Shown here: piece by piece, positions 60,131-64,000 of the stretch
Position numbering within the stretch: the first letter of the stretch is position 1
Layout of the letters: each line of letters opens with the position of its first letter
From: a virus
Taxonomy: Duplodnaviria; Heunggongvirae; Uroviricota; Caudoviricetes
Strand: one strand, 5' to 3'
Virus record (IMG/VR): IMGVR_UViG_2541047680_000004
DNA: 64,000 bases
The notes under the pieces: generated by a model
Seen by the model: only the letters and a program-made list of their open reading frames with translations
Told to the model about the DNA's origin: nothing
The model's database searches: none
Program-made: the position numbers and the translations under genes

Positions 60131-60153
60131 ATAGGTAAACACTTACTTACTAT
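60131..60153. promoter_or_regulatory. family-2 dyad-like motif
   Basis: ATAGGTAAACACTTACTTACTAT. Confidence 0.3.
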
Positions 60154-60740
60154 TTGTTATAAACAAAACCAATATCTTTCTTGTGAGGCATATCTGCTGC
60201 TGAAAAAGCTGCGATCTTCGCGAGTCGATCACATATTTCATTTTCACGATGCCCGGCGTGACCTTTAACCCACTTCCAGCGAACATTATGTCGACTTGCG
60301 GCCTCATCCAGACGCTTCCACAGATCAACATTCTTTACCGGTTTTTTGTCAGAAGTCATCCATCCATTGCGTTTCCACCATTTCATCCACTGTGTCATGC
60401 CGTTTTTCAGATACTGGCTATCAGAGTGCAAAATAACGTTGCATGGATATTTCAAACGCTCCAGCCCGATAAGTGCCCCCATCATCTCCATGCGGTTATT
60501 GGTGGTGCTATGAAAACCATCTGAGAACTCGCGTTCCTCACCACGATACTGGAGAACGATACCGTAACCGCCCGGGCCACCCGGATTTTTAAGGCAAGAG
60601 CCATCACTAAAGATTTTCACGGTTTTAAGCTGGGGATTGAACTCTACGACAGGCGTTGTGGGATTGGTGCGGGGAGAATTTTTGTTTTTGTCTTTTTTGC
60701 GAGTTTTTGCTTGCGATCGGGCTGGTGTCTTCGTCGTCAT
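60150..60740 (-). CDS. ribonuclease H (RNase HI family) with basic N-terminal extension
   Basis: SDGSC, NNRME, HSDSQY, VKGHAGH, NE..D motifs; start set at MTTKT with RBS AGGAG. Confidence 0.8.
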
Positions 60741-60839
60741 ATAAACTCCTGAATCAAGCGCCGCGCCGATTTTTCCTCGCGCGTGCGCACACGCGTGCGT
60801 GTTAATAATTATTAAAATAAACAAATTACTTCCCAGAAC

Positions 60840-61205
60840 AGGTTTTTATAAACCTGAACTGAACGAACGAAGTGAGTGACGTTCACCTCGAACGAAGTGA
60901 GAGGTTGTCTTTTCAGGTAATACTCTCCCAGGGAGGTGAGTATAAAATTCCTCACCAACCTGGTCGTTTCATAACCTGAAAAGCTATGGTCTAAGTCTAC
61001 TGCCAGCTTAGACTTGGGAAGTTATGGATGACAGCACCCCAGAACCGAGATCTTCCCACACTTTATGAAGGGGAGTACTGGATTCAACCTCTCGAAACAC
61101 CCCAGACTCGACAATCATAAAGTGACCCTTGTCTCTGCTCACTTTGGTTCCCCCTTCCCCGACACCTATACGGCACCGGTTCTACGCTGGTAGTGAGCTT
61201 TTTTA
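60840..61205 (+). ncRNA. candidate structured noncoding RNA (antisense to flanking genes)
   Basis: ORF-free 480-bp gap; nested inverted repeats CTTTTCAGGT/ACCTGAAAAG and GGTGAG/CTCACC; duplicated GAACGAAGTGAG; plus-strand hairpin GCTCACT..AGTGAGC followed by TTTTTT at 61137-61205. Confidence 0.3.
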
Positions 61206-61321
61206 AACCTGACGCCAGTGACGCTTACCCCCACCCATCAGGTCGAGCCTCCAGTCTACGACTGGAAACTATCAGATCTTAGCACTTACAATTCACTTTA
61301 TGAATAGTTTGTACTTATCTA

Positions 61322-61576
61322 TCATTGTGATTGATTATTTTCTCGACCATGTAGTTGAACATTCAAGGCAAACACCTCATTGATCAACTCACCTAAAAGC
61401 TGTTCAACAAGTTCGCGATGCTCGCCAAGATGCAAGCACTTAATTGCCCACTCGTACAAGTTGAAAGCCTGCTCACGATCTTTCATCATTTCACGAGCCT
61501 GGGCCAGAAAATCGCTCTCTACGAGCGCAACGACATTAGTCGGGTATGACATGTTGGTTTCCTTAAAGTGGTTCAT
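61322..61576 (-). CDS. hypothetical protein
   Basis: 84-aa ORF. Confidence 0.35.
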   Translation of the reverse strand: MNHFKETNMSYPTNVVALVESDFLAQAREMMKDREQAFNLYEWAIKCLHLGEHRELVEQLLGELINEVFALNVQLHGRENNQSQ

Positions 61577-61659
61577 AAAATCGATTTTAAAGCGTCTGGG
61601 AAGGGGGTCTAGTGGATTCTGTAGTGATGTTCAGGTCTGGGAGTCTCTGATACAAAACA

Positions 61660-61716
61660 GCCTGCTTCCGTATATTAATAATTAATATGTAGTTATTTAT
61701 ATATACAGAAGCAGGC
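61660..61716. repeat. large AT-centred palindromic element, copy 2
   Basis: arms GCCTGCTTCCGTATAT / ATATACAGAAGCAGGC; GGTCTGG 19 nt upstream. Confidence 0.6.
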
Positions 61717-61738
61717 TAATTACAGACGCCAGAGCAAA

Positions 61739-62332
61739 CTAAGCAGCCTTCTTTGATGGTCTTTTTTTCCTGATCACATTCGCAGGATCATACCCTCCCA
61801 GACTTTTCATGACGTCCAAAGGGATCTTGCTTATAGAGTGCCCAGCGTCCTGACAAAACCCTCGAAAAACAACGAGCATACTGCCACCGGGGTTGATGTT
61901 TACTTCTACCTGACCCAAATTGACGTCAGGCTCGACAAACGCAACGCGGCCACCAGACAGAATAATCGTCTCATTCGCATACTCTGTTGCACGCTCATAC
62001 CACTTTGTATCGAGGGATTGAGGAATTAGCATCACTGTTGTAACTCCGCGAGCCTGCTCACGTATAGCCGCATCAATCCAGGGGGAGATTTTGGAGTAGG
62101 GTGGATTGAGGAAGGCAATTGTACCTGGCTGCCCCCATTCAGATTTCAAAGCATCGCGCTCAACGCCTATGAAAATAGGCAGCTTTGCATTGTCCTTGTT
62201 GCAGGCAACGTCAACATCAAATGTCACTCCAAGATAACGTTGAATGGCAGAAAACAGCCAATCAGGTGTTCTCCAGAGGTCACGAAGAGAGTTGTCGCGC
62301 TTTCGCTGTTTGATTTTTTCGGCTGCAATCAT
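61739..62332 (-). CDS. phage-type DNA N6-adenine methyltransferase (Dam-like)
   Basis: motifs RTPDWLF, FDVDVAC and FLNPPYS; 197 aa; no adjacent restriction partner. Confidence 0.8.
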   Translation of the reverse strand: MIAAEKIKQRKRDNSLRDLWRTPDWLFSAIQRYLGVTFDVDVACNKDNAKLPIFIGVERDALKSEWGQPGTIAFLNPPYSKISPWIDAAIREQARGVTTVMLIPQSLDTKWYERATEYANETIILSGGRVAFVEPDVNLGQVEVNINPGGSMLVVFRGFCQDAGHSISKIPLDVMKSLGGYDPANVIRKKRPSKKAA

Positions 62333-63447: not shown

Positions 63448-63486
63448 AGCCTGCTTCAAACTCTCTTTAAAGCAGGCTTTTGTTTT
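63448..63486. terminator. terminator hairpin related to the palindromic elements
   Basis: AGCCTGCTT..AAGCAGGCT stem followed by TTTTGTTTT. Confidence 0.5.
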
Positions 63487-63784
63487 ACACAATTTCAGAG
63501 GGTAATTTAAAAAATCCGTATTTATTACGTGCCTTAAAGAAGCATTGCATCATTAAGTTTGTGTCATATAAGGCACTATGTGCTTTGGCATGATCGTATA
63601 TAAAGCCAAGAGAGAAGGCCAATTCTTCAAGGCGAGGACGTTTACCGTCTTCTGTGGCCCACAATCCCGATAACATAGTATCTATAACGGGAACGTCTGG
63701 CAGTCTTACTCCATACCCTGAAAACTCGTGTCGAATAAATGGTATATCAAACGCTTCGCCGTTATGAGCAATCCACGCACTACA
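63485..63784 (-). pseudogene. DnaQ-like (DEDDh) 3'-5' exonuclease gene, 5'-truncated by IS10
   Basis: C-terminal reading frame contains HNGEAFDIPF (Exo II-like) and HSALYD (Exo III-like); reading frame runs into the IS10 end at 63785 with no Exo I region. Confidence 0.65.
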
Positions 63785-64000
63785 CTGATGAATCCCCTAA
63801 TGATTTTGGTAAAAATCATTAAGTTAAGGTAGATACACATCTTGTCATATGATCAAATGGTTTCGCGAAAAATCAATAATCAGACAACAAGATGTGCGAA
63901 CTCGATATTTTACACGACTCTCTTTACCAATTCTGCCCCGAATTACACTTAAAACGACTCAACAGCTTAACGTTGGCTTGCCACGCCTTACTTGACTGTA
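63785..64000 (+). mobile_element. IS10 (IS4 family) end, partial, continues beyond window
   Basis: sequence from CTGATGAATCCCCTAATGATTTTGGTAAAAATCATTAAG matches the IS10 terminal sequence as I recall it. Confidence 0.85.
63892..64000 (+). CDS. IS10 transposase, N-terminal fragment (partial at window edge)
   Basis: translation MCELDILHDSLYQFCPELHLKRLNSLTLACHALLD. Confidence 0.85.
   Translation, partial: MCELDILHDSLYQFCPELHLKRLNSLTLACHALLDC

Follow-up and report, generated by a model that had tools for sequence, protein, structure and literature searches.

A highly conserved, structured RNA element next to the RNase HI gene of SSU5-like phage-plasmids of Enterobacteriaceae

The stretch of DNA considered here, named the window at its full length of 64,000 nucleotides (IMG/VR virus record IMGVR_UViG_2541047680_000004, Caudoviricetes), carries a non-coding gap of 581 bp (60741-61321), that reaches from the annotated start of rnhA to the stop codon of an 84-aa open reading frame (ORF84), and it is the structured RNA element located in this gap that is described below. 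All neighbour genes are on the minus strand; the genes of Dam methylase, 3'-5' exonuclease, DHFR and ThyA lie upstream of the element, and TerB-like and other genes lie downstream. An initial annotation, made from the sequence, had recognised a non-coding gap of 480 bp at this site, and of this description the non-coding character stands while the size has to be extended. The region is matched by about 685 plasmid records (megablast) and the element is present in about 690 PLSDB plasmids, mostly from Klebsiella, Escherichia, Enterobacter and Salmonella and also from Citrobacter, nearly all of them non-mobilizable and about 105-120 kb long, with pECOH89 as the closest plasmid match (99.8%). Salmonella phage SSU5, Escherichia phage Cyrano and Klebsiella phage-plasmids match the region as well. 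Because of these plasmid and phage matches, the window is regarded as part of an SSU5-like phage-plasmid of the pECOH89/Cyrano type.

The repeats that drew attention to the gap are present in the sequence. The nested inverted repeats are found at 60909-60983, where CTTTTCAGGTAAT/ATAACCTGAAAAG (60909-60921 / 60971-60983, 13 nt, 92%) encloses CCAGGGAGGTGAG/CTCACCAACCTGG (60928-60940 / 60951-60963), and the duplicated dodecamer corresponds to CGAACGAAGTGAG, which occurs in two copies (60864-60876 and 60889-60901). The long hairpin followed by a T run also exists on the plus strand, with GCTCACT and AGTGAGC at its ends (61137-61143 / 61193-61199) and TTTTTT directly after it (61200-61205); it was not called by a simple terminator scan, because its loop of ~49 nt is too long. 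When 60840-61210 was folded and compared with shuffled sequences, the plus strand gave z = -2.55 and the minus strand z = -3.68, and the complete minus-strand RNA (61270-60815) reached -168.6 kcal/mol with z = -4.79; in each of these three tests 0 of 100 shuffles folded as well. The expectation of a highly structured RNA is thus confirmed by folding, and by the compensated helices described below.

The strand on which this RNA is encoded was decided by comparison of homologues, of which 54 and later 83 distinct sequences were gathered from IMG/VR and metagenome contigs; alignment A1 contains the 54 sequences in minus orientation. The consensus consists of 128 pairs in 17 helices, that are 99.6% paired on the minus strand (0/500 shuffles reach this value) and ~88% paired when the same helices are read on the plus strand, and in a control with the partner slid by 1-3 columns the paired fraction was 35-48%. 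Eight pairs of A1 are changed on both sides (3/500 shuffles reach that number), as are 72 cells (0/500), and the observed covariation score was attained by none of 500 shuffles, although the shuffle statistics overstate independence, since all the sequences belong to one related group. The one-sided pattern of wobble pairs is unaffected by this caveat. Among the 54 sequences the minus strand is favoured by 798 G-U cells, spread over 30 pair positions, and the plus strand by 3, and with 83 sequences the counts are 1108 vs. 2, each minus-strand G-U pair being an A-C mismatch when it is read on the plus strand. The intermediates can be followed at single pairs: 61196/61139, which is situated in the stem of the supposed plus-strand terminator, is UA in 32, UG in 7 and CG in 15 sequences; 61013/60989 is GC in 19, GU in 31 and AU in 4; 61012/60990 is CG in 36, UA in 15 and UG in 3; 61177/61161 appears as GC, GU and AU and 61176/61162 as GU, GC and AU. 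Moreover, the internal G-U pair 60887/60871 is invariant and 61037/61028 is nearly so (GU 51, AU 3). The RNAalifold consensus energy is -141.7 kcal/mol for the minus strand vs. -115.2 kcal/mol for the plus strand. Such a strong bias of wobble pairs to one strand implies an RNA of the minus strand; the RNA folds on this strand and runs in the same direction as the neighbour genes, so that the antisense orientation given in the initial annotation has to be reversed.

An antisense RNA of ~350 nt on the plus strand, ending at the hairpin and TTTTTT (61137-61205), is consequently hardly probable at all. The hairpin with its T6 does exist, the plus strand does fold better than its shuffles, and the published expression table discussed below gives no strand by itself. 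However, besides the lower pairing of the plus strand, compensatory intermediates become A-C on it even within the supposed terminator stem (seven sequences have C-A at 61139/61196), the T run varies from 5 to 8 nt, and no promoter was found or conserved on the plus strand upstream of 60840, nor is any conserved in the 5' part of the element. The structure that had been taken for a plus-strand terminator corresponds to helix 3 of the minus-strand RNA together with its inner helices, preceded by an A run (Table 1).

The minus strand provides the corresponding transcription signals. A sigma-70 promoter is located just past the ORF84 stop, in a neighbourhood that is otherwise only 71-77% conserved. 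Its -10 element varies by clade (TAAGAT, TAAAAT, TACAAT, TAGAAT or TAGGAT, i.e., TAnnAT) and always occupies the same place; the -35 element is TTCATA, TTTAAA, TTCAAA, TTTACG or TTTACT (TTYAnn), and the 17-nt spacing is kept throughout. Transcription is predicted to start at A61270 or G61269, and this predicted start coincides with the first base of the 5'-terminal stem-loop. The latter forms in every clade from a different sequence, with CCGGA/UCCGG, GCUGGCAGA/UCUGCCAGC, AUUUCGA/UCGAAAU and GCUUUC/GAAAGC as alternative stems. In helix 2 three pairs are changed on both sides (AU to GC twice, CG to UA) and internal G-U pairs are invariant on the minus strand; next to helix 3 the homopolymer comprises 5 to 8 nt among the homologues. 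Double compensations occur also in two arms of the central domain, 61124-61059 (CG to UA) and 61013-60989 (CG to UA twice, with UG intermediates), and in the 3' hairpin 60856-60839, where UU/AA is replaced by GG/CC and GA/UC, UA by GC in 8 sequences, and GGGA/UCCU is found in another clade. The UGGGAAGUAA that follows this hairpin is invariant, and so is helix 16, in which CGAGGUGA pairs with the downstream copy of CUCACUUCGUUCG. Arms 61058-61015 and 60983-60909 are without variation, as is the closing helix, hence covariation speaks neither for nor against them. The 3' module is presumed, judging by its hairpin and U-rich tract, to be a terminator or the 3' end of the RNA, which would lie near 60814.

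Table 1. Features of the intergenic region between rnhA and ORF84 and of the two flanking genes, in window coordinates.
Feature	Position	Strand	Remarks
rnhA, phage RNase HI with basic N-terminal extension (downstream neighbour)	60150-60740	-	PF00075, E = 1e-44; phrog_531; annotated rnhA in pECOH89
Spacer before rnhA	60741-60813	-	AT-rich stretch, GC-rich hairpin 60757-60800 with A-run loop, then ribosome-binding site CAGGAG
3' module	60814-60863	-	outer stem 60863-60859 / 60836-60832 around hairpin 60856-60839; then UGGGAAGUAA and U-rich AAUUUGUUUAUUUU (60827-60814)
Duplicated CUCACUUCGUUCG motif flanking CGAGGUGA (60890-60883)	60901-60889 and 60876-60864	-	consensus pairs CGAGGUGA with the downstream copy
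Central multi-branch domain	60899-61135	-	RNAalifold consensus; closing helix 61135-61125 with 60905-60899, invariant
Four arms of central domain	61124-61059, 61058-61015, 61013-60989, 60983-60909	-	RNAalifold consensus
Helix 3 with inner helices 4 and 5	61137-61199	-	preceded on the RNA by an A5-A8 run; equals the plus-strand hairpin + TTTTTT
Helix 2, G-rich hairpin GACCUGAUGGGUGGGGG...CGUCAGGUU	61206-61244	-	15 pairs, 100% paired
5'-terminal stem-loop GUUUCCAGUC-GUA-GACUGGAGGC	61247-61269	-	hairpin in every clade, sequence different
Sigma-70 promoter	61304-61276	-	-35 TTCATA (61304-61299), 17-nt spacer, -10 TAAGAT (61281-61276), TGc before -10
ORF84, 84-aa protein (upstream neighbour)	61322-61576	-	phrog_5343, function unknown

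The core of the element (~60860-61240) is 97-100% conserved per column and both edges of the gap are variable. In the clades most distant from the window the core retains 88.5-95% nucleotide identity, whereas the coding sequences of rnhA, ORF84 and dam retain 74-80%; the element evolves 2-4 times more slowly than the surrounding genes, and RNA loops and junctions are nearly invariant even though proteins diverge by 15-25% among clades. Selection on the RNA is thus stronger than on the neighbouring proteins. Indels of 1-3 nt sit in loops and shift the frame of small ORFs, and in the 83 sequences there is neither an ORF that keeps a fixed start nor a hydrophobic one. Because its conservation exceeds that of the neighbours and no ORF is conserved, the element is considered to be non-coding and under strong selection.

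The element is present in one copy per contig, always at the same position, and 232 of the 5,426 complete E. coli genomes carry it. A search of viral and metagenome contigs by sequence pattern retrieved only SSU5-like contigs, mostly of ~105-120 kb (89-99% identity), and when viral contigs were scanned by rnhA, the loci bearing the element were only SSU5-like; distant phage loci that carry rnhA have no gap and no nhmmer match to the element. With blastn set to 'distant' sensitivity, neither a relative beyond the SSU5-like group nor a similar host gene turned up among phages, plasmids and E. coli genomes. Two of the 234 element sites in complete E. coli genomes are chromosomal and the rest are on plasmids, suggesting that SSU5-like elements integrate now and then.

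Transcription of the region in lysogens can be evaluated from the stranded RNA-seq data set GSE154648 (GEO), obtained with E. coli LF82 carrying the SSU5-like phage-plasmid Cyrano, in which a 44-aa 'hypothetical protein', CYRAN_81, is annotated at OV696614.1 78657-78791 (Misson et al., PMC9928086). This ORF maps to 61008-61142 of the window, on the minus strand, wholly inside the element. Few Cyrano genes are expressed in lysogens; CYRAN_81 is one of them, at 12 times the prophage median, and in the ten samples of S1 Table (LB, DMEM, macrophage; values as log2(fpkm+5), fpkm being fragments per kilobase per million) it reaches 6.8-10.35, compared with 3.1-5.8 for CYRAN_80, the ORF84 homologue, and 2.6-5.0 for CYRAN_82, which is rnhA; the putative repressor CYRAN_45 has a similar level, 6.4-10.35 (Misson et al., PMC9928086). 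The signal of the element is several-fold to ~40-fold over both flanking genes in all 10 samples. Since it is far above that of the upstream ORF84, the element has its own promoter; most transcripts stop before rnhA, or the structured part alone survives. Two other Cyrano loci, outside the window by collinearity, are strongly expressed: CYRAN_43 (OV696614.1 40268-40822, a 'hypothetical protein' beside the integrase and repressor genes) has log2(fpkm+5) of 11.5-14.9, ~700-fold over the prophage background, and CYRAN_40 (OV696614.1 39144-39356) has 7-11 (PMC9928086). Further RNAs that have escaped recognition may lie behind them, or else genes that SSU5-like phage-plasmids express at very high levels in lysogeny.

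The 44-aa annotation raises the question whether the transcript is a messenger, either for the CYRAN_81 protein or, as a hok-like structured toxin mRNA, for a type I toxin-antitoxin locus. The size of the RNA and a possible long-range pairing of its 5' and 3' parts recall hok mRNAs, which are plasmid-borne, ~400 nt long, highly structured and stable, and hokD mRNA is likewise a highly expressed 'moron' in lysogen transcriptomes (PMC9928086). However, CYRAN_81 starts with GTG and is hydrophilic, its frame is broken by 1-2-nt indels in the Klebsiella clade and in two others (L118 and L151), and the element differs from hok/sok loci by having neither a conserved hydrophobic ORF nor an antisense RNA gene. 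A messenger is for these reasons barely credible, and the type I toxin-antitoxin assignment was rejected on the absence of a conserved or hydrophobic ORF in the 83 sequences, on the frame-shifting indels and on the lack of a hit to Sok or any other antitoxin RNA.

The inverted repeats and duplicated motifs could also function at the level of DNA, where they might bind a protein, mark a packaging site or fold into hairpins for single-strand initiation, and single-stranded DNA would tolerate G-T pairs. This explanation is very improbable: transcription of the region clearly exceeds that of the genes on either side, the predicted transcript start has a conserved promoter and a 5' hairpin exactly in place, the element is not AT-rich, and a wobble bias to one strand is the behaviour of RNA.

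The minus strand from 61270 to ~60815 is best read as the gene of an independently transcribed, stable and highly structured non-coding RNA (ncRNA) of ~455 nt, specific to the SSU5-like phage-plasmids of Enterobacteriaceae, and we assign to this reading a probability of about 0.8; the predicted length replaces the ~350 nt of the initial annotation. What is generally found in an independent ncRNA gene is found here, i.e., a promoter, compensated helices, non-coding character and transcript signal, the ends of the transcript being predicted and the strand of the reads presumed. Several points weigh against this reading. All homologues come from one phage-plasmid group (at least 88% identity), so that the covariation counts are inflated by shared ancestry, and because roughly two in three helices show no variation, the case for the central junction and for the helix that closes it is purely thermodynamic. 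Both transcript ends are predictions, and the presumed terminator at the 3' end is not canonical, with 6-7 nt between the stem and the U tract and a U tract that is poor in the Klebsiella clade. The expression values are counts for a mis-annotated ORF of 135 nt, taken from a stranded library but from a table without a statement on the strand used in counting. Finally, a search for antisense targets in the rest of the 64-kb window gave complementarity at chance level, which weakens an antisense role and provides nothing positive on function.

A different view of the same transcript, compatible with the proposed ncRNA gene and not exclusive of it, is that it is a leader of the rnhA operon and regulates it in cis, in the way of an attenuator or a riboswitch. 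The large junction domain would then serve as the sensor, its closing helix being in competition with the first CUCACUUCG copy. In response to a ligand, a protein or an RNA, the 3' module would either terminate or permit read-through into rnhA, and the RNA seen in lysogens would be the terminated leader. The RNA is indeed co-oriented with rnhA and directly upstream of it, the spacer of ~75 nt between the RNA 3' end and rnhA holds no convincing separate promoter, and the signal drops sharply before the gene. The sequence also offers alternative pairings: CGAGGUGA could pair with the upstream CUCACUUCGUUCG copy instead of the downstream one, i.e., with either CUCACUUCG copy, and CUUCCCA (61021-61015) is pairable with either copy of UGGGAAG (61057-61052 or 60834-60829). 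The predicted partner switches between folding runs and the isolated 3' part folds differently. Nevertheless, all the proposed switch elements are invariant, so that covariation tests neither conformation, and since every base involved is invariant, we infer the alternative conformations from pairing potential only. In addition, 455 nt far exceeds the known enterobacterial leaders, no Rfam riboswitch or leader family matches, and rnhA homologues of more distant phages lack such a leader. On balance a leader function is doubtful, though it is a realistic candidate.

Known RNA families do not account for the element. At gathering score, Rfam 15 gave it no match in a scan of the whole window, and at E <= 10 the interval 60600-61800 yielded, on both strands, only chance-level hits of miRNA and snoRNA type, none of which covers the element. 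The families covered include tmRNA, RNase P, 6S, SRP, group I/II introns, riboswitches, GOLLD, ROOL, OLE, HEARO, raiA, C4, RNAI and Sok. ARAGORN found no tRNA or tmRNA, so the earlier failure to match the element by eye to tRNA, tmRNA, RNase P or 6S RNA agrees with the scans, and the covariance-model search proposed at that time identified no Rfam family either; the covariation across homologues that had likewise been proposed revealed a conserved structure, on the minus strand and not on the plus strand. Among the RefSeq E. coli records listed, PGAP places no annotation at the element, and the RNA was not described in the literature searched, in which a preprint on the copy number of phage-plasmids dealt with another family.

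One likeness is to the large structured ncRNAs of phages and prophages whose function is unknown, GOLLD and ROOL, and also to OLE, raiA and HEARO, with which the element shares a length of several hundred nt, many helices, a multi-branch core, carriage by a phage or mobile element, strong conservation of primary sequence including loops, and no obvious antisense target. In contrast to them it is not beside tRNA genes, it is expressed in lysogeny and it has no match in Rfam 15; moreover, it is found in phage-plasmids of Enterobacteriaceae, from which GOLLD/ROOL-type families are not known. Another comparison is with immunity and leader RNAs from satellites and phage-plasmids, namely the P4 CI RNA, the P1/P7 c4 RNA and the small processed RNA of N15, in which a constitutive leader heading a lytic operon is abundant in lysogens and transcription stops before the downstream genes. 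RNAs of the P4 CI/c4 type repeat a short sequence and its complementary copies in one transcript, and the two copies of CUCACUUCGUUCG around CGAGGUGA resemble this arrangement. These immunity RNAs are ~77-80 nt long and have specificity sequences that differ between hetero-immune relatives, whereas the element is ~455 nt long, its motifs are invariant in all clades, and neither a C4 hit nor other target sites in the window were found; an immunity RNA of the P4 CI/P1 c4 type was rejected on these four points.

The adjacency of an RNase HI gene also brings to mind the ColE1 RNA II, a primer of an R-loop origin. A folded G-rich RNA, made from a constitutive promoter, would stay hybridised to its template and be cut by RNase HI, giving a 3'-OH from which DNA synthesis starts. 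The likeness extends to a sigma-70 promoter ~455 nt upstream of an AT-rich stretch that is followed by a GC-rich hairpin, a folded RNA of ~450-550 nt and G runs in the transcript (GGGUGGGGG, GGGGAAGGGGG and two GGGG), and the element is inside a DNA-metabolism module (dam, exonuclease, DHFR and ThyA upstream); RNase HI itself is shared by adjacency only. Yet there is no GC-skew change at this site and no AT-rich unwinding region within the element, searches gave neither a gene like that of the antisense RNA I nor an RNAI hit in Rfam, rnhA is barely expressed in lysogens in which the RNA is abundant, and the replicon is typed RepA and located elsewhere (repA primers in PMC9928086). A primer function is accordingly improbable. 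A ColE1-type RNA II/RNA I origin in the strict sense was rejected, there being no RNAI hit, no conserved plus-strand promoter in the 5' part and no skew change.

With the stable ncRNA gene as the favoured reading, a mode of action can be outlined. Transcription would proceed from A61270 or G61269 through ~60815 and stop at the 3' hairpin and U-rich tract, and rnhA and the lytic DNA-metabolism genes downstream would in this way be shielded from a promoter that works in lysogens. In its mature form the RNA would act in trans during the plasmid (lysogenic) state, where a role is suggested because its expression reaches a repressor-like level. Since loops and junctions are nearly invariant among clades, an invariant partner or a tertiary fold is favoured over clade-specific antisense pairing; a protein of the host or of the phage is the likeliest partner, or else the tertiary structure of the RNA itself, rather than a phage-specific antisense target. 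The mutually exclusive pairings of the duplicated CUCACUUCGUUCG and of UGGGAAG could additionally switch the 3' module between termination and read-through, and a stable trans-acting RNA that also terminates in cis is the favoured combination.

In its general kind, phage-encoded ncRNA, the proposed new RNA family is broadly known; its size, conservation and expression in lysogeny are unusual, and the sole prior trace of it is the mis-annotated 'moron' CYRAN_81. We would go further only tentatively, at somewhat less than even odds: the element may represent a new class of large (~455 nt) folded RNA of enterobacterial phage-plasmids, which would act by its fold in three dimensions or, bound to a conserved host or phage factor, as a ribonucleoprotein, as is suspected for RNAs of the ROOL/GOLLD type, and would influence plasmid-state maintenance, the lysis-lysogeny decision or host physiology, and which would not be an ordinary antisense small RNA or leader. 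SSU5-like phage-plasmids are common in clinical Enterobacteriaceae, and pECOH89 is reported to carry CTX-M-15. To our knowledge, little is known of SSU5-like gene expression in the plasmid state, and a locus listed in the literature as a 'hypothetical protein' moron, one of the handful expressed in lysogeny, proves to encode a large structured RNA. It is a concrete and testable point of entry for studies of plasmid-state regulation, of how the neighbouring RNase H gene and the genes of DNA metabolism are controlled, and of possible effects on the host. The few large RNAs of bacteria and phages that lack an assigned function also gain one more candidate, here in a host amenable to genetics.

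The flanking genes and sequences have several features of their own. The phage RNase HI has an N-terminal extension of ~40 aa, basic and missing from chromosomal RNase HI, which aligns only to phage residues ~38-192 with ~60% identity. ORF84 is preceded by a promoter-like site (61611-61584, minus) and has no Pfam match, and the flanking proteins offer no functional hint. In the spacer before rnhA the hairpin 60757-60800 folds about equally on both strands and the length of its A-run loop varies. Inside this GC-rich hairpin, a short way before the ribosome-binding site of rnhA, pyrimidines and purines alternate without exception over 24 nt (cgcgcgtgcgcacacgcgtgcgtg, 60778-60801), a tract that could form Z-DNA; a relative (L067) has one additional ACACGC unit, and the A/T homopolymer beside it ranges from 4 to 9 nt among relatives.

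Further upstream, 61655-61722 forms a long palindrome, AT-rich except for its GC-rich ends (GCCTGCTTC...GAAGCAGGC), and on the minus strand UGUUUUGU comes next. By eye it looks like an intrinsic terminator of the dam transcription unit (61722-61655, minus), although the terminator scan did not call it, and it is the source of the chance-level miRNA-type Rfam hits mentioned above. At the end of the window (63785-64000) an outside end of IS10 (CTGATGAATCCCCTAATGATTTT, 63785-63807) is followed by RNA-OUT (RF00240, 63830-63899, minus, 98.8 bits), the sole hit of the window at gathering score. It is apparently this insertion that interrupts the 3'-5' exonuclease gene; pECOH89 has the gene intact, whereas here just a remnant ORF of 63 aa at 63485-63676 is left.

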